From Tequatrovirus NIC06P2: 64,000 nucleotides of DNA. Below are positions 2,794-56,435 of this stretch, piece by piece. Numbering within the stretch: position 1 is the stretch's first letter; every line of letters starts with the position of its first letter. The notes beneath the pieces were generated by a model, which saw nothing but the letters and a program-made list of their open reading frames with translations, was not told the origin of the DNA and made no database searches. The position numbers and the translations under genes were made by a program. Location of the stretch: sequence record OZ035760.1, one strand, 5' to 3'.

Positions 2794-3033
2794 TTATTTA
2801 CCTATCACAGTTTTAATATGAGTTGTTCCACGTTCTTTAAGGGTGGAAAGTAATTTTTGGCATTTTTCTAAATCAGATTTCCAACTATATGGTCTATCAA
2901 TACTAGTCCAATCAGTTTTATAATACTGTTTCCATTTAGAGAAAAAATATTTCTTATACTCTACAGCAAATGAGATGTTCTCATTAGAATAAGAACTAAT
3001 TGCTGTGAGCTTTACCAAACGAAATTTCATCAT
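2794..3033 (-). CDS. hypothetical protein (31.2 position, 79 aa)
   Basis: Complete ORF abutting cd. Confidence 0.5.
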   Translation of the reverse strand: MMKFRLVKLTAISSYSNENISFAVEYKKYFFSKWKQYYKTDWTSIDRPYSWKSDLEKCQKLLSTLKERGTTHIKTVIGK

Positions 3034-3611
3034 TCACCACAGAATTCGTTGATATTTTCCCAGTTTAACTTATTCAAGTTTTTCTTAGGAACATTAAACA
3101 CTTCAATACCTGCATTTCGCAAAATATCATCCCAACCAGGTTTATTTTTGTCGTATGTTTCGCAATAAACTAGTTTTTTAATTCCAGATTGAGCTATCGC
3201 TTTTGCGCAATCCGGACATGGAGAAAGTGTTACATACATAGTAGCACCTTCAATAGAAGAACCATTTCGTGCAGCAAACAAAATTGCATTTAGTTCAGCA
3301 TGAATTTCATTTTTAGATGACCATTCCGAGTGAGCACTACGATGTTCTTTTGCCAAGACAAAACGATCAGTTGAACCAAATGATACGCATTCAGGCTTAT
3401 GGCCTTGAATGATAGTATGTTTAGGCTTATTCAACAACCATCCTTGCTCAGCAGCATAATCACAACAGTTCACACCCCCTGCGGGTGAACCATTATACCC
3501 AGTAGAAATAATACGTCCATTCTTTTCAATTACTGCTCCTACCTTCCAGGAGCAACATTTTGATTCTTGTGATACTAAATATGCAATTTGAAGTACTGTA
3601 CTCGCTTTCAT
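3030..3611 (-). CDS. cd: dCMP deaminase (193 aa)
   Basis: Cytidine/deoxycytidylate deaminase zinc-binding signature (HAE...PCxxC) and T4 Cd length; synteny. Confidence 0.9.
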   Translation of the reverse strand: MKASTVLQIAYLVSQESKCCSWKVGAVIEKNGRIISTGYNGSPAGGVNCCDYAAEQGWLLNKPKHTIIQGHKPECVSFGSTDRFVLAKEHRSAHSEWSSKNEIHAELNAILFAARNGSSIEGATMYVTLSPCPDCAKAIAQSGIKKLVYCETYDKNKPGWDDILRNAGIEVFNVPKKNLNKLNWENINEFCGE

Positions 3612-3946
3612 TTCATAATCACCAGATAAGCAGATTTAGCAGTTTCAACACGATAAATTTCGTGACGAAGTTTAGTTATACTTTTAATAATAGAACTAAT
3701 TATATTCTGCCCATCTTTAAAGCGGTTTTTCTTGTCAATAAAAATTGCGCCAATCATCTTTTTGTGAAGCTCAACTGGATACTTCGTCACAATAATAGCA
3801 TCATATACAGAAGGATGAATACTATTCACCAGAGTATCATTCATTAAAGTTATTCTAATGAACTGCGCTGTTTCAGAATCAAGCGCTCTATGATCGCCAG
3901 TATCATTTTCAAGACAATTATCAATTATATCAGTTAAATTCATCAT
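3608..3946 (-). CDS. hypothetical protein (cd.x region, 112 aa)
   Basis: ORF translationally coupled to neighbours (overlapping stop/start). Confidence 0.5.
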   Translation of the reverse strand: MMNLTDIIDNCLENDTGDHRALDSETAQFIRITLMNDTLVNSIHPSVYDAIIVTKYPVELHKKMIGAIFIDKKNRFKDGQNIISSIIKSITKLRHEIYRVETAKSAYLVIMK

Positions 3947-29875: not shown

Positions 29876-30658
29876 ATGGCAATTGTAGGTGTTCCTGGCT
29901 GGATTGGTGAATCTGCCGTGAATGAAACTGGACAACGTTGGATGGATGCTGCAATGAGAGCAGTTCGTGTTTCAGTTCCCGGTTGGATGAGCTCAATGGC
30001 TGGACAATCTAAAGAAATTATTCACACGCTTGGAGCAGACCATAACTTCAATGGTCAATGGTTCCGAGATAGGTGTTTTGAGGCAGGTAGTACACCTATA
30101 GTGTTTAATATTACAGGTGATTTAGTATCATATTCTAAAGATGTTCCTTTATTCTTCATGTATGGAGATACACCGAATGAATATGTTCAGTTGAATATAC
30201 ACGGCGTAACGATGTATGGACGTGGCGGTAATGGCGGTAGCAATAGTCCTGGCTCAGCTGGAGGTCATTGTATTCAAAATGATATTGGTGGGAGACTAAG
30301 AATTAATAATGGTGGAGCTATTGCTGGCGGCGGCGGTGGCGGTGGCGGCGGATATTATTCTCCTTTTTCACAAATGAGATTGACCTTTGGCGGCGGTGGC
30401 GGTCGTCCTTTTGGTGCGCCAGGCGGATCTATTGATATGCAATCAGGCGCGACTGGTGGTACTATTTCTGCACCTGGCTCAGGATCCGTGAATGGTATCT
30501 ATAATGGCGGAAACGGTGGTGAAGTAGGTTCCGCGGGAGGTAGATGCAATATTCGCGGTCAAGGATCTGAATATAATGGCGGCGCTGCTGGTTATGCTGT
30601 CATAGGGTCCGCTCCAACGTGGCAAAATGTTGGAGCAATATATGGTCCAAGAGTATAA
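29876..30658 (+). CDS. 38: gp38 tail-fibre tip adhesin, T2-type (260 aa; glycine-rich motifs)
   Basis: Multiple poly-Gly motifs ([39 protein letters not shown]) separated by variable segments; follows gene 37. Confidence 0.85.
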
Positions 30659-34199: not shown

Positions 34200-34349
34200 T
34201 TACTGCATGACTGTGATAACTGTCATGATAACACGTTGAATTCCGAACGCAAGAAGACCTCCTGCTACGGCTGGAACAACACCTAAACCCGCCAGTAAAA
34301 TGCTACCGGATACTAATGCAGCGCTTGTAATACCAATGAATGGACTCAT
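34200..34349 (-). CDS. small hydrophobic peptide (49 aa; motA.1 position)
   Basis: ATG overlaps the gene 52 stop (ATGA); predicted TM peptide MSPFIGITSAALVSGSILLAGLGVVPAVAGGLLAFGIQ... Confidence 0.4.
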   Translation of the reverse strand: MSPFIGITSAALVSGSILLAGLGVVPAVAGGLLAFGIQRVIMTVITVMQ

Positions 34350-35674
34350 TTGATTTCCTCTAAATCTTTGGTGTATTCTGTAACTACATCAGTAGTTTTC
34401 CAATATTCGTTTTCTTCTTTTTTAGCTTTAGCTTCTTCTGCAAGTTTCTTTGCTTCGTCGGAAGTCATATGAAAAATATTCATTCCGACTAGTTTATCAA
34501 CATAAGAAGAATACATATCGATTTTCGAAAGTTCTTCGGTCAGTTCTTTACGAGTTTTACCCTGTACAACAATTTCACCTGAAATTACTTTCTTAATGAA
34601 ATGCGCCTTGGCAAAGGCTAAACGAAAAGCGGACTCAGTTTCTTTAATTTTGTTATCAATTCGTTTTTGGACATAAGTTTTACGAACTTCAACAAAGTCT
34701 TTAATTAAATCAACTACGTTATCGTAAACTTGTAGTTTTCCTTTCTCATTAATAACGGTAATATTCTGAGAACGACGCTCAATCAACCCGAAGTCTTTCA
34801 TAATTTTTGCATGGCGTTCTTCTTCGTTATCGCTCAAAGAATATTCTTTACGGAATTTAACTTTGAATCCAAAACCATGCTCACCACAAGCATCATCCCA
34901 TGTAATGAAGCCTTTATCTTCAAGTGGGTCTAAAATTTTACTCACGTAAGTTTCACGATCATACTTATACGGAATCTCAGTGATATGCATTTGAGTTCGT
35001 GAAGTAAACTTATATGTTCCACGAATTTCATATTGTCCATCAATTTCAACGACTTCACCACGAAATTCTGGGAATTCTACCTTCGGTTTAGTTACTTTCT
35101 TTCCTTGAAGAGCTTGCAGTACAGCTTTCTTGACAGAAGAAACACTATGAGGAAGAATGTAAGTTGCATAACCAGTTGCAATACCGGAAACGCCATTAAG
35201 AAGAACAGTAGGAATAACAGGCAAATAGAAAGCAGGCGGAATGTGTTCTTTATCTTGATGTACCGGAGCATATTCAGTATCTTTATATACGTTATAGAAA
35301 TTTTTACTTACACGAGCAAAAATATAACGACTTGCCGCTGCCTTTTGGACAGTACGAGAACCAAAGTTTCCTTGACCATCTAACAGAGGAAAATTATTAT
35401 TCCAAGTGTTAGCCATCAAAGCACCTGCGTCTTGCGCAGAGTTTTCACCATGATGATATCCAAGGTCCGCTACACCGCCTGCGATAGAAGCGAGTTTGTG
35501 AAACTTATCTTTATTTCCTCGTGCCAAATCAAGAGCTCGAGCAATAACAAATCGTTGAACTGGCTTAAATCCGTCAATCATATTTGGGATAGCACGATTT
35601 TCAACCGTGTACATAGCATAAGCCAATGCTTCATTATCAATGATACTTTTTAAATCGCGATTATTCAGTTGCAT
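34346..35674 (-). CDS. 52: DNA topoisomerase II medium subunit gp52 (442 aa)
   Basis: GyrA-like breakage-reunion domain with active-site Tyr region; T4 gp52 length. Confidence 0.9.
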   Translation of the reverse strand: MQLNNRDLKSIIDNEALAYAMYTVENRAIPNMIDGFKPVQRFVIARALDLARGNKDKFHKLASIAGGVADLGYHHGENSAQDAGALMANTWNNNFPLLDGQGNFGSRTVQKAAASRYIFARVSKNFYNVYKDTEYAPVHQDKEHIPPAFYLPVIPTVLLNGVSGIATGYATYILPHSVSSVKKAVLQALQGKKVTKPKVEFPEFRGEVVEIDGQYEIRGTYKFTSRTQMHITEIPYKYDRETYVSKILDPLEDKGFITWDDACGEHGFGFKVKFRKEYSLSDNEEERHAKIMKDFGLIERRSQNITVINEKGKLQVYDNVVDLIKDFVEVRKTYVQKRIDNKIKETESAFRLAFAKAHFIKKVISGEIVVQGKTRKELTEELSKIDMYSSYVDKLVGMNIFHMTSDEAKKLAEEAKAKKEENEYWKTTDVVTEYTKDLEEIK

Positions 35675-39631: not shown

Positions 39632-41809
39632 TTAGGCCGCAAGGGCCTTCATAGTTTTAGCGATTTGGGAAACTTCATCATCGCTCAAAGAGTTGCGATA
39701 ACCGATGAAGTCGGAAACAATACTGAATTTCTTGGTAAACTCAGCAACCATTTTATCACTATTTTTTGAAGCATTACGTGATAATTCATCAAAAAGATTA
39801 GTTACCGTCCAGATGTCATGACCGATGGTATCTTTTCCACCATTAAAATATACACCCTGTAATGAACTAACCATATTAGCGAGTCGTGTATATTCTTCAG
39901 AAACTTCATCTACACTGAAGTACTTCATCATAAAATCTAGCTCAGGATACTTGATAATTTTATCAATATATCGTTTAGCTGAACTTGAATAACCTACATA
40001 CTTATCATAATCTACATCATCAAAAGCATCTACATATAAATCACGCAAAGCTTCAAAAATACATTGGCACTGACCGAGTTCTTTTACCTTTTTCTGTAAA
40101 AGCGGACGAATAACATAAAATTCATTAATGCCAATAAGATTAGCCATACGAATCAAAATATTCATAGATGGATGACAAAGAGATGTAGTACCATCCATAG
40201 AGAAAATATCAGAACGATGCATATACGCTACATAACCAGTAATTTCATCTGCTTCTGACGTAAGTGTAAACAGTTCCTCTTTTTCCCAACGCCCGTCTTT
40301 AATTTCAAACTTAAATGCTGTAGCAGCTTTAGGACGAGGAGCTTTACTTTTAACTACCTTTGGAATATAGCTTTTAACTAAAGCTTCAATTTCTGACAAA
40401 TAATGAATGTTAACTTCATCACTTTCAAACATCGCCATAATATCAGGAAGCAAATCAATCTGCGATTCTACTTCTGGATTAATAAACAGAAGACGTTCGT
40501 TGTGATGAATATTCAAAGTGTTATTAAATTCACTATCATCTAACGCACGTGCTAATCCACGGACAATATTAACACGATTTTTAATATTATCAATAACGAT
40601 ATTAATTTTTGTTGTATTAATACCAAACAGACGATAACTTGATGCAACGGCTGAAGTTTCATGACTTTGCTTAATGCGCTTCAGTCGAGGGTCAAGATTT
40701 ACTTCATACACAACTCCTGCATTGCATAACTTACTATCAGGTTCAAACATACTCTGCATCTTCTTATATGACAGATTTTTAGTCGTGAATTTGACTGAAT
40801 TACTAATCATATAATCTCGAGCAGAATACCCCATCTTCATCAATTCACGATATGTGTGACGAGGAGATGTAGATTCTTTAAATCGTTTTACATCTTCATT
40901 AAATGCTTTCTCACTGAGTTCTTTAACTCGTTCAATAATATTTTTACGAGTACGATCATCAAGTGAAAGAGCCTCGCGAGATGGAGCAATATCAAGTGAA
41001 CCCATTGGAAACTTAATGTAATTCACTTCATTGCGAATGCTTAACCAGTTGCGGTCTCTAATAACACCATCAATAGGATAAACAATACCGCCATAGATAG
41101 CATATAATCCACCACGATCTGGCCAGTATCTTTCTGGATTTACACCGTAATAATCATCAAAATCCGGAAAATAATCAATTTCGCGGTCAAGACCATTAAT
41201 GATAGCCAAATCTTTGAACGGTCGCATGATATAAGAAACTTCATAAGCAAAGTTTCTAAAGTCTTTTTCTTCAACTGGAACTACGATTTCAATACCAGTT
41301 TTATCATCTGGACCCATTTCTTTTACGAATGTAGGTTTAATCTGTGGACCATCACCATCCATGTAAGCTACATAACCACGAATTTCACCTTTATGATACG
41401 AAGTAATACTAAACGTATCAGTATAACTAAACGGAGATTTAGAACCTAAACCAAATCCGCCAATGAAATCGTTAGATTCAGCCTTAGATGAACTGAAGTA
41501 TGAATTATACAGACCAGGAGAATTATCATCACCCTGAATATCAAAATCACTCATACCCGGACCAAAATCTCGACAAACAAATCGTGGATCTAAACGTCCA
41601 GGAACTTGTATGATAAATTTTTCAGGATTTCCATTGAGAGCATGGGCATCAATCATGTTGGTAATCAATTCACGGACTACTGCGCGAATTTTGTTTGTAT
41701 ACAAATCAGATGACAGAATTTTAAATACTTTAGGAGATGCTGTGATGCTAAATGCTTTTGATTTAGAACCATTACCAAGAATTGTTTCTTTTTCAGTGGT
41801 GATAATCAT
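39632..41809 (-). CDS. rIIA: rIIA (725 aa)
   Basis: T4 rIIA length; N-terminal GHKL-type ATPase-like region; synteny. Confidence 0.95.
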
Positions 41810-41819
41810 AATTTCCTCA

Positions 41820-42023
41820 TTAATTCATATTACGCTTAATAACTTCAGCAACTTCTAGTAATTCATCTTTAGTTGCGGTGTCGGATTGAATTTTATCTCT
41901 AATATCCTTAAAGCGGTTTTTAAATTCTTCGGCTTCTCCCATATCGAAAAAGCGTTGAATGATTCTATATTCTCGATGAACTGCTTTATCAAAAAGTTCT
42001 AAATTTACTTTATATGATTTCAT
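41820..42023 (-). CDS. hypothetical protein (rIIA.1 position, 67 aa)
   Basis: Complete ORF between the gene 39 stop and rIIA. Confidence 0.55.
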
Positions 42024-42078
42024 TTCAATATCCTCATTTGCCCAATTAATTATACCACATCCTTGTGGTAAAGTAAAC
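42024..42078 (-). promoter_or_regulatory. candidate early promoter (GTTTAC at 42073-42078)
   Basis: Reverse complement GTTTACTTTACCACAAGGATGTGGTATAATTAA upstream of the rIIA.1 ORF. Confidence 0.5.
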
Positions 42079-43898
42079 TACTGGCTCATCCATTCTTTAC
42101 GAAGGTCAGCGTTATCTCCCATGAGCATTTCAAAAAGCTCTTTCCAATTCTCAGGAAGTTTAACAACATCATATACTGGATTTTGAATCATCTCACGATA
42201 TTCAGATTTTTCCAAAGAGCCAAGTCCTTTAATATAACGGATGCTATGTTTAGGTAGAGCATCTTTGGCACTCTCATATTCAGCGACTGTATAAAACCAT
42301 TCTTGTTTTTTACCGACCTGAGCGATGATTACAGGAGTTTTGACAAAGCGAATTCGTCCTTGCTCAAACAATTCTGGCCAATTACTAAAAAATCCGAGCA
42401 GAGAAGGATAAATGCTTCCTAGACCATCATGGTCAGCATCAGTCATAATAGCAATATTATGATAATTCAAGTTTTCAGCTTTTTCACCGAGAACTAATCC
42501 AGTGATTGCGCAAATATCAAATAGTTCTTTGTTTTTAAGCATATCAGCATATGACATACCCCAACTGTTGAGAACTTTACCACGTAATGGATAACCACCG
42601 TGAAGTTCTTTATCACGAACATCAATAAGATATCCGATAGCCGAATCACCCTCAGTCAAGAAAAGAGTAGTATCAGCATCTTTACCACAAAGATTCGCTT
42701 TAATATGTTTATGAACCTTAGCTTTAGAAGCCTTTTTAGCTGCTTTAGTTTCTGCTGCTTTTTCTGCCGCTAATTTACGAGCCAAAGCAGCTTCAATAAT
42801 CGGCATTAGAATTGCTTCATTATTTAGAATAGCACGTGAAATCTTTTTAGCATCAAGCTGAATATGACTACGGATTTCACCAAATGGAGAAGTCAAGCGC
42901 TCTTTAGTTTGAGAATCAAATCGCATGTTTTTCATATCACGAACAAACATAACGATAGTCAAACATTCTTTAACACGTGCTTTAGTTACATCAATTTTGA
43001 ACTTACGTTTGATTTGTGGAATAAGGTCTTCACAAATATCATCCATAACACAGTCAATGTGATGGCCACCATTCTTAGTGTGGATGTTATTGACGTATGT
43101 TAATTGACGAAAACCATCCGGTGAACGACCAACCGCAATAGAACAATTTTCTTGTTCTTGAACAATAGCATGCTCATCATATTGGCGTGCATATTTCTTA
43201 AAATTGCCCTGAACCTTTTTACCATTAAAGGTAAATTGAATATCAGGATAAACAACAGCAAGTGTCTGGAGACGATCTAGTGTAATGTCAAGATAAACTT
43301 GGGACAGCTCATTAGTTTCAAATGACATAAAATCAGGAATGAAAGTAACACGAGTTCCTTTCCATTTTCCAGGAATATCTTCCCATGATTTATTTTCCAT
43401 GCCGTTTGAACAACGAACTACAATATTATTTTGACCATCACCAGTTTCACCGACAAACATCACAGAAAAAATGTTTGTCAAACTAGAACCAACACCATTC
43501 ATACCACCGGTGACGCGCTCTTTATCATCACCGAAGTTACCACCTGCTTTTGGAATAGTCCACGCAGCAACAGGTCCAGGAATTTCTTCACCGGTAGGTG
43601 TTTTAACCATCGCTTGTGGAATACCGCGACCGTTATCTTCAACTGTTACTTGATTGTTTTTAATAGTAACATTAATTTTATTTGCGAATTTAAACTTAGT
43701 ACGAATACCTTCATCTACTGAGTTATCGATAATTTCATCAATAAGCTTAACAAGACCAGGTACATACTGAACACTTTCCCATTTACCAAACAGAAAGCGC
43801 TCATGCATTTCATTAGCAGAAGAGCCAATGTACATGCCGCTACGCTTTTTGATATGTTCAATATCGCTCAGAATTTTAATTTCATTCTTAATCATCAC
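42078..43898 (-). CDS. 39: DNA topoisomerase II large subunit, single fused gp39 (606 aa; covers T4 genes 39 and 60)
   Basis: GyrB-like ATPase (GHKL) and TOPRIM regions in one uninterrupted ORF; no internal gap, no mobA. Confidence 0.9.
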   Translation of the reverse strand: MMIKNEIKILSDIEHIKKRSGMYIGSSANEMHERFLFGKWESVQYVPGLVKLIDEIIDNSVDEGIRTKFKFANKINVTIKNNQVTVEDNGRGIPQAMVKTPTGEEIPGPVAAWTIPKAGGNFGDDKERVTGGMNGVGSSLTNIFSVMFVGETGDGQNNIVVRCSNGMENKSWEDIPGKWKGTRVTFIPDFMSFETNELSQVYLDITLDRLQTLAVVYPDIQFTFNGKKVQGNFKKYARQYDEHAIVQEQENCSIAVGRSPDGFRQLTYVNNIHTKNGGHHIDCVMDDICEDLIPQIKRKFKIDVTKARVKECLTIVMFVRDMKNMRFDSQTKERLTSPFGEIRSHIQLDAKKISRAILNNEAILMPIIEAALARKLAAEKAAETKAAKKASKAKVHKHIKANLCGKDADTTLFLTEGDSAIGYLIDVRDKELHGGYPLRGKVLNSWGMSYADMLKNKELFDICAITGLVLGEKAENLNYHNIAIMTDADHDGLGSIYPSLLGFFSNWPELFEQGRIRFVKTPVIIAQVGKKQEWFYTVAEYESAKDALPKHSIRYIKGLGSLEKSEYREMIQNPVYDVVKLPENWKELFEMLMGDNADLRKEWMSQ

Positions 43899-43947
43899 TT
43901 ATCCTCGTTTGGTTTCGGGAATATTATACTCCGGTAATCATAAAGCT

Positions 43948-43965
43948 AAAGGCCCGAAGGCCTTT
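43948..43965 (-). other. hairpin aaaggcc-cgaa-ggccttt (bidirectional terminator-like)
   Basis: Perfect 7-bp stem with GNRA loop flanked by A-run and T-run; lies between gene 39 start and the upstream ORF stop. Confidence 0.45.
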
Positions 43966-44234
43966 TATTTAAAACGAATAGTTGAATCCTTAAAGAACAG
44001 CCCAGAACATACTGTTCCTTCTACTTTCTGCCCAGTAGGTCCAATAGCACGAAATCCAGTATGTTGGAAATCATTTTCAGAGCAACCGAACCAATTATAT
44101 CCAGTGATTTCAATATTAGTAAAACCACTTGAAGACAAAACTTTGGTTGCATTATCAGCATCAGTACATCCTATTAAAGACACTGCTAATACTAATGCTG
44201 CGATAGAACGATTAACATATTTCATAATTTTCAC
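43965..44234 (-). CDS. putative lipoprotein (89 aa; signal peptide with LIGC lipobox)
   Basis: MKIMKYVNRSIAALVLAVSLIGCTD... has a classical lipoprotein signal. Confidence 0.55.
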   Translation of the reverse strand: MKIMKYVNRSIAALVLAVSLIGCTDADNATKVLSSSGFTNIEITGYNWFGCSENDFQHTGFRAIGPTGQKVEGTVCSGLFFKDSTIRFK

Positions 44235-44602
44235 TTAAATTTAATGGCTTGAAGGAGACTAATAATTCTTAAACGGCTTCTTTCATCTTTAACTGTAAAA
44301 GAAAGAGGATCGCCAGATTTCATAGTGATAGTGCATTCAAAATCAAAATCTTCGGAAACTTCTTTGAAGAAGTCAAATTCTTCATCATAAATTAGAACAT
44401 TACTCTGACAACTATGAAGAATTTTTCCATCATTTCCAGATGCTGTACTAATCATTGTAACATTATGACCTTTCATATCTTCAACGATAAATTCACTAGT
44501 CAATATTACAGCATTAATAGAACTATTCCTATTACTAGCAGAAAGTAGATATTTCTGTTCTTCACCTTCACGAATGCAATATTTCTTACCGATTTTAAAC
44601 AT
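44231..44602 (-). CDS. hypothetical protein (123 aa)
   Basis: Complete ORF. Confidence 0.5.
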   Translation of the reverse strand: MFKIGKKYCIREGEEQKYLLSASNRNSSINAVILTSEFIVEDMKGHNVTMISTASGNDGKILHSCQSNVLIYDEEFDFFKEVSEDFDFECTITMKSGDPLSFTVKDERSRLRIISLLQAIKFK

Positions 44603-54819: not shown

Positions 54820-55056
54820 TTAACCACCTATTTCTGTTGGCGTAAACATTGCAGCATTCTTAGTTTTCCAGTCAGCTGCATCAGAAACTACAGTAGAATA
54901 TGCTGCCTTTTCAGAAGGAAAGGTCTGATAATGAGAATCTGCAATACGATGCTCGTTAGAATAGATTTCAAACGGAACAGAAACTTCCATACCTTTAACT
55001 TCTTTGCCTTCACCTGCTGGATGAGTAAAGGTCTTGATGTTAACGAAACCGCCCAT
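54820..55056 (-). CDS. soc: small outer capsid protein Soc (78 aa)
   Basis: Conserved Soc motifs (YVNIKTF..., HYQTFPSEKAAYSTV) and late promoter upstream. Confidence 0.9.
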   Translation of the reverse strand: MGGFVNIKTFTHPAGEGKEVKGMEVSVPFEIYSNEHRIADSHYQTFPSEKAAYSTVVSDAADWKTKNAAMFTPTEIGG

Positions 55057-55087: not shown

Positions 55088-55095
55088 TATTTATA
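55088..55095 (-). promoter_or_regulatory. late promoter TATAAATA for soc
   Basis: Plus-strand TATTTATA is TATAAATA on the minus strand, about 32 nt upstream of the soc ATG. Confidence 0.7.
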
Positions 55096-55942
55096 AACCA
55101 TTTTCAAATCTCTTTATCATGTTTATATAATTTTCGTCAGGATAACCTAGGCTAACTGCTAACTTTCTAAAATTGACATATTTAGGTTTGTTGTTATTAA
55201 TCCATAATTCTCTAAGCTCTTTTTCATAATTCCATTTAAGTTGATTTCTGCGTGCAATTTTGCTTAAAGTTTTTCCTTTAGCTTTTAAAGCTTTTTCAGA
55301 TGACTGTTTTAATTTTTGAATATTTAAAACTTCTTCTATAGATAAATTATTTTCCTTTGAATATCTTATGCAAAAATCTTTTACTACGGCTATTAGGCAA
55401 TTTTTGTGAGTACCTAAAATTTCTGGATTATTTTCTTCAACTAAAATTCCCCAATATCTTCGATAGCGAGGCATATCCCTTGAAATCCAGTCATTATACC
55501 AAAAATCAAAGTTGGAATACATGAAAGATTTTCTTTTGCGAAGAGTATCTTGGTTTATCCATTGCTCACGTTTATCAGCCCATAACTTAATAGTAAAGTC
55601 TTTCTCTAAGTCAGAAAGCTTCTTAAATTGCGAGCTATTTACTGAGGTCATTCTCTGGAATGCATTCAGCAATCCAAATCTTCCAGTTGAACATAAGAGA
55701 TAGTGAACATATATGTGTTGATATATTGGGAGATATACTCTATTCCAAGGATATGTTTTAAAATCACTGTACTCAGGAAATGCGCATTTAGGAAGTATAT
55801 GATGGGCTTCTGTTTTAGATTTAATGTGAGTGTTTAACTTATACTTATCTATAATTTTTAAATACTCATCTAAAAGTTCCCATTGCGGGAACTTTTCTTT
55901 AAGAGCAGATTTGAAATTAATATCCATTATCTTGACGTTCAA
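55091..55942 (-). CDS. putative free-standing HNH homing endonuclease (283 aa)
   Basis: HNH-like core (TEAHHILPK...N...H) near the N-terminus, basic C-terminal half; occupies the soc-56 spacer and overlaps the 3' end of gene 56. Confidence 0.5.
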   Translation of the reverse strand: MNVKIMDINFKSALKEKFPQWELLDEYLKIIDKYKLNTHIKSKTEAHHILPKCAFPEYSDFKTYPWNRVYLPIYQHIYVHYLLCSTGRFGLLNAFQRMTSVNSSQFKKLSDLEKDFTIKLWADKREQWINQDTLRKRKSFMYSNFDFWYNDWISRDMPRYRRYWGILVEENNPEILGTHKNCLIAVVKDFCIRYSKENNLSIEEVLNIQKLKQSSEKALKAKGKTLSKIARRNQLKWNYEKELRELWINNNKPKYVNFRKLAVSLGYPDENYINMIKRFENGL

Positions 55943-56435
55943 AATTATGTTTGTTCTTCAGATAATAAAGTTTAAAGATTTCTTCTGCTGTAAGACCAAG
56001 ACCTTGGAACATGTTCAGAACAAAATGAAGAATATCAATCATTTCGAATTTAATTTCTAACTGATCCTGTGGAGACAAATCAGTAATCAAAGTTTCACGG
56101 CGTTCACCATGCTGCGACTTCCAAGGTTTCCATACAGCAGATGCATCTTTTTCGCCATTGCTCATACCGCCAAGAGAAGTTAGAAGTTCGCGGAATTCAT
56201 CATCAATATAATCTTTCTGATTACGCAGCCAATCAACAACTTCACCTGCGGTAGCCAAATCATCAGGATGACGGTTATATTCAGGTTTATCTTTAGCTAA
56301 ACGAATCTGTAAAGATTTCTGCATATCAAGCATTACCTGCAGCGGGTCTTTTTCATCACCGAGAATATCCCAATATTCATTTTGAGCTTTATCAGCGCCT
56401 TCGATCAGTTGACTACATTCGTTGAAATGTGGCAT
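55917..56435 (-). CDS. 56: dCTPase/dUTPase gp56 (172 aa)
   Basis: Matches T4 gp56 size and sequence (MazG-like NTP pyrophosphatase). Confidence 0.9.
   Translation of the reverse strand: MPHFNECSQLIEGADKAQNEYWDILGDEKDPLQVMLDMQKSLQIRLAKDKPEYNRHPDDLATAGEVVDWLRNQKDYIDDEFRELLTSLGGMSNGEKDASAVWKPWKSQHGERRETLITDLSPQDQLEIKFEMIDILHFVLNMFQGLGLTAEEIFKLYYLKNKHNFERQDNGY

Follow-up and report, generated by a model that had tools for sequence, protein, structure and literature searches.

Gene 39 lies at positions 42078–43895 of the minus strand of the window, the 64-kb stretch of Tequatrovirus NIC06P2 DNA (OZ035760.1) analysed here, and specifies a protein of 605 amino acids plus a stop codon. The gene, also called '60plus39' and known in the literature as Topo2L, was assigned from the open reading frame listing, from Pfam matches and from protein identity with RB32 and T6. 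On the minus strand, the open reading frame itself runs uninterrupted from 42078 to 43898, with no internal stops, and amounts to 606 codons if counted from an in-frame GTG (43896–43898, minus strand) that can be read in the sequence one codon 5′ of an ATG. This GTG is the source of the 606-residue length given in the earlier note; the uninterrupted frame described there stands, but its length needs amending by one residue. The product most likely has 605 amino acids and starts at the ATG at 43895 (the second codon of the longer frame) rather than at the GTG, since a GAGGA Shine–Dalgarno sequence is found 6–7 nt upstream of this ATG, and since the same ATG, with MIKNEIK as the first residues, is the start of T4 gp39 as well as of the homologues annotated in RB32, T2 and Pu-Krd-SF4. 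The GC content across the gene is ∼0.36, the same as that of its surroundings.

Three Pfam domains, all scoring above the curated cut-offs, were found along the protein: HATPase_c (the GHKL ATPase; residues 47–149, E = 2e-9), DNA_gyraseB (the transducer; residues 250–384, E = 1.4e-13) and TOPRIM_C (residues 519–604). In a search of solved structures, the protein aligned with the ATPase domains of human and yeast Topo II and with those of ParE and GyrB. The QTK loop is present (MRFDSQTKERL), and the Toprim motifs are carried on one chain, TEGDSA at residues 414–419 (which includes E415) and IMTDADHDG at residues 483–491 (which includes D486, D488 and D490). Judged from these domains and motifs, the protein is a GyrB-like subunit of a type IIA DNA topoisomerase, with an ATPase domain, a transducer and a complete Toprim domain. 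E415, together with D486, D488 and D490, would form the metal site of the latter; E415, D486 and D488 have been named as the Toprim metal-binding residues of T6 gp39 (PMC11461880). The best match to the protein among solved structures was PDB 8YLU chain C, aligned over residues 1–605, and the related entries 8YO1, 8YO5, 8YO7, 8YOD and 8YON were matched as well. Entry 8YLU and those related to it correspond to the large subunit of phage T6 topoisomerase II, gp39, as solved by cryo-EM (PMC11461880).

A small discrepancy was observed in the T4 reference record directly before the QTK loop. Residues 326–328 of gp39 read LIR in NC_000866 (MR-LIR-QTK), while they are FDS in the window protein, in T6 (PDB 8YLU) and in a resequenced T4 (MT984581). 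The difference comes from a 1-nt deletion and a 1-nt insertion in NC_000866, located 8 nt apart, at a place that corresponds to window positions 42912–42920. The LIR triplet of the reference record looks like an old sequencing error, which is probably what it is, or else a strain peculiarity. The T4 construct used for cryo-EM (8YO3) was synthesised from the reference protein NP_049621.1 (PMC11461880).

The genes around gene 39 follow the order rIIB, rIIA, rIIA.1, 39, 39.1, a gene similar to RB32ORF005c, 39.2 and goF, which is the order found in RB32 and T2. The downstream neighbour of gene 39, rIIA.1 (41820–42023, minus strand), was recognised by its match to Pfam T4_RIIA1 (E = 1.4e-33), and the succession of rIIA.1 and gene 39 is the same in T4, T2, RB32 and the window. 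On the other side, the 39.1 homologue (43965–44234, minus strand) specifies 89 amino acids if translated from a GTG, and its N-terminus resembles a signal peptide followed by a lipobox (LAVSLIGC), which suggests a small lipoprotein; in the T4 reference, 39.1 is annotated as a shorter protein of 65 amino acids. A GC-rich hairpin, AAAGGCCTTCGGGCCTTT, is present at 43940–43962 (minus strand), directly 3′ of the stop codon of 39.1, and the sequence TATAAT occurs ∼25 nt before the Shine–Dalgarno sequence of gene 39, so that the region between 39.1 and 39 looks like a terminator followed by a promoter. A promoter and terminator scan of positions 41700–44300 gave counts no higher than those in shuffled sequence and did not flag this arrangement of AAAGGCCTTCGGGCCTTT and TATAAT. 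Between 39.1 and 39.2 there is an open reading frame of 123 codons (44231–44602, minus strand) that is absent from T4 but annotated in both RB32 (RB32ORF005c) and T2; it matches PHROG 622 (function unknown) and weakly resembles families of the goF type.

The protein was compared with T4 gp39 and gp60, taken from NC_000866. By BLASTP, residues 1–473 matched residues 1–473 of T4 gp39 (466 of 473 identical, 99%), and residues 472–605 matched residues 27–160 of T4 gp60 (128 of 134 identical), the aligned part of gp60 being identical to the window protein over residues 492–605. Nothing in the window protein corresponds to residues 474–516 of T4 gp39 or to residues 1–30 of gp60. At the DNA level, the match is made up of three blocks: window 43997–42478 with T4 5430–3911 (97.3% identity), a coding stretch of 46 nt at window 42469–42424 with T4 2899–2854 (76%), and window 42413–42000 with T4 2793–2380 (99%). 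Homology to T4 stops exactly at codon 473/474, where the alignment with gp39 and gp60 suggested in the earlier note places the junction, and it picks up again 9 nt past the T4 bypass cassette. The earlier note's reading of the locus as one gene spanning T4 genes 39 and 60 was borne out, the BLASTP matches, the DNA blocks and the nucleotide comparison described below being in agreement.

Gene 39 can be divided accordingly into three parts, all on the minus strand. Codons 1–473 (42477–43895) are common to T4 gp39, as judged by BLASTP and the DNA match. Their product comprises the GHKL ATPase and the transducer together with the first half of the Toprim domain, in which E415 is located. Codons 474–491 (42423–42476) constitute the parental segment, ENLNYHNIAIMTDADHDG, which includes the DxDxD motif (D486, D488, D490) and is the part that aligns with T4 at 76% DNA identity. 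Codons 492–605 plus the stop codon (42078–42422) are common to T4 gp60 residues 47–160, by BLASTP as well as by their 99% DNA identity, and complete the Toprim domain and add the C-terminal associated domain. The sequence GEKA-ENLNYHNIAIMTDADHDG-LGS reads through continuously in the window, with no break over codons 466–494.

A nucleotide comparison placed the site of the T4 50-nt bypass cassette between codons 491 (GGT) and 492 (CTA), at positions 42422–42423 of the minus strand, where nothing is inserted. T4 reads GAT CAC GAT GGA / TAG CCTTCGGGCTA...ATTATT GGA / TTA GGT TCT ATT across this site, whereas the window reads GAC CAT GAT GGT / CTA GGA AGC ATT; the 50-nt gap is missing from the window, which has GGT as codon 491 where T4 has the take-off codon GGA. 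In T4, the insert of ∼1.1 kb gives gp39 a tail of 43 amino acids and gp60 a head of 30 amino acids, and also contains a mobA pseudogene (with 60.1), as well as the untranslated gap of 50 nt together with the take-off hairpin that belongs to it; the window lacks all of these. In T4 the parental segment has been deleted, and the element's own diverged copy (homR, of codons 476–491) has taken its place, whereas the window has the parental ENLNYHNIAIMTDADHDG. The window protein is, on the evidence of these alignments, something other than a simple concatenation of gp39 and gp60.

Remnants of the bypass and of mobA were sought over the whole 64-kb window. No match to the bypass hairpin (a 21-mer, with up to 3 mismatches) was found. 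When the T4 insert (2794–3910, which takes in the 50-nt bypass as well as mobA/60.1) was used as the blastn query, only the 46-nt coding stretch was recovered, and a tblastn search with T4 60.1 and the mobA fragment gave chance-level matches only. The RNA around codon 491 was no more stable than shuffled sequences (z = −0.87), and the take-off hairpin was not found in its fold; when the T4 sequence was submitted to the same test, the 10-bp GGAUAGCC-UUCG-GGCUAUCU take-off stem appeared. The absence of a bypass element and of mobA claimed in the earlier note therefore held in every one of these tests, including the search for hairpin remnants that it had proposed.

The window does contain a free-standing HNH homing endonuclease gene elsewhere, an open reading frame of 283 codons at 55091–55942 (minus strand) that lies between gene 56 (dCTPase, 55917–56435) and soc (54820–55056) and shares 26 nt with the end of gene 56. 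It matches PHROG 655 'homing endonuclease' (E = 1e-33) and gave no match in Pfam; its spread is sporadic (only 30 phage records), as is typical of mobile endonucleases. The idea that this gene, to which one weak match to the HNH motif had pointed, might be a relocated mobA was considered and rejected: BLASTP against the intact MobA of RB55 gave E = 7e-4 over 43 amino acids, and only the HNH motif is common to the two proteins.

The boundaries of homology between the window and T4 coincide with those published for the clade-1 MobA element (Manning & Atkins, bioRxiv 10.1101/2022.08.31.505936). In that description, the 5′ break falls at Topo2L residues 466–473, the homR copy is 67–81% identical to the parental segment, a range that includes the 76% observed here, and the bypass cassette comes after D490/G491 and is followed by 9 nt more of element sequence. 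In the literature, the fused Topo2L is regarded as the parental state, which has been invaded repeatedly by the MobA element. Taken together, the comparisons make it close to certain that the open reading frame at this locus is an intact, uninserted gene 39 of the T2/T6/RB32 type, specifying the large subunit of the T-even topoisomerase II. The state seen in T4 (39, mobA, 60 and the 50-nt bypass) arose when a MobA homing-endonuclease element of ∼1.1 kb invaded a gene such as this one; the phage from which the window derives either would never have received this element, or may have received it without retaining it.

A continuous gene could also be the product of a secondary fusion, in which an ancestor carrying the MobA element in the manner of T4 later lost it in a 'hit and run' fashion, re-creating the continuous gene. 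Losses of this kind have precedents, since in the Aeromonas and Campylobacter phage clades the endonuclease and the bypass were lost after insertion (Manning & Atkins, bioRxiv 10.1101/2022.08.31.505936); the published cases, however, keep the C- and N-terminal extensions derived from the element, while the window protein has neither extension, nor is there a homR copy. Codons 474–491 are moreover the parental allele, and the DNA from gene nt 1408 to 1520 is identical to that of T2. Had the element been lost when its carrier recombined with an uninserted phage, the result would look the same as if it had never been there, but a secondary fusion is considered very unlikely. An assembly or sequencing artefact, whereby a T4-type insert or a frameshift present in the real genome had been collapsed, has a precedent for error within gene 39 in the compensating frameshift pair at codons 326–328 of the T4 reference record, but is scarcely credible, as the window protein does not differ from that of RB32 at any residue, the same continuous 1818-nt gene is present in hundreds of independently sequenced phages (see the counts below), and a clean in-frame collapse of a unique 1.1-kb insert is implausible as an assembly error.

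The preferred reading, that of an uninserted parental gene, fits the distribution of the two states among phages. The 2.6-kb region around gene 39 was matched by 535 phage records, 507 of which match over ≥80% of its length at a single place, and the T4 insert was found in only 43 records, namely T4 isolates, RB55, RB59, HY01, vB_EcoM_112 and a few others. Since the insert is present in only 43 records as against the 535 that match the region, the continuous gene 39 is the majority state, found in about nine-tenths of Tequatrovirus-like records, and the split form of T4 is a rare exception.

Over longer distances, the identity of the window to other phages varies. The best 25-kb match to positions 30000–54999 in the phage collection is ∼95% identical, and the identity of phages Pu-Krd-SF3 and SF4 to the window, which is 100% at the HNH gene, is no more than 97.4% at gene 39. 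As far as these identities indicate, the window is from a mosaic T-even relative to which no record examined corresponds throughout, in keeping with the usual mosaicism of T-even phages.

The segment of gene 39 that spans everything replaced by the MobA element (gene nt 1408–1520) is the one identical in DNA to T2, for which nicking by MobA and cassette transfer (homing) have been reported, according to work cited in bioRxiv 10.1101/2022.08.31.505936. Because the window and T2 have the same sequence over the insertion site, gene 39 of the window is expected to act as a naive homing site, one that MobA can cleave during mixed infections. By analogy with T2, the nick and homing site would be contained in codons 474–491. 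Just upstream of the insertion site, three synonymous differences from T2 are found, at gene nt 1398, 1399 and 1407. Were these changes to confer part resistance to MobA, the gene would be a naturally immune uninserted allele; there is very little chance of this, given that the window and T2 do not differ in the segment where the nick has been reported.

The partner subunit is specified in the same window, ∼6.4 kb from gene 39. Gene 52 (34346–35674, minus strand) appears in the open reading frame listing as a GyrA-like protein of 442 amino acids and matches Pfam DNA_topoisoIV (E = 1.1e-76). The gene 39 protein and gp52 would assemble into an A2B2 enzyme, gp39(2)gp52(2), that should relax DNA in an ATP-dependent manner. 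This expectation comes from the near-identity of the window protein to T6 gp39, for which both the structure and the relaxation activity have been determined: structures and ATP-dependent relaxation were reported for T6 Topo II, in that case T6 gp39 paired with T4 gp52 (PMC11461880).

Both the bypass of T4 gene 60 and the mobile cassette of MobA are defined by comparison with the uninserted gene as the reference state. The window contributes one more 'parental' allele to this reference, the predicted homing site being intact and the same as in T2, and adds nothing new on topoisomerase function, translational bypassing or homing; its gene 39 is an ordinary gene of the T2/T6 type, already known, annotated and structurally characterised. 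The arrangement had been attributed in the earlier note to relatives of T2, and this attribution agrees with the comparison with the individual phages. The protein has the same length, 605 amino acids, as gp60plus39 of RB32 and RB14 and as gp39 of T2. It is identical to RB32 gp60plus39 over all 605 residues, the DNA being 98.1% identical and the differences all synonymous; no match above ∼98% DNA identity to gene 39 was found in the phage collection, even though the protein is one already known from RB32. T2 gp39 differs at a single residue (604 of 605 identical), with 96.6% identity between the genes. T6 gp39 shares 603 of the 605 residues, the substitutions being D173 versus T and Q526 versus H, and its catalytic residues E415, D486 and D488 are all present in the window protein. 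The T6 enzyme is composed of two kinds of subunit, gp39 and gp52, and the same number has been described for T2 Topo II, whereas that of T4 has three (PMC11461880).
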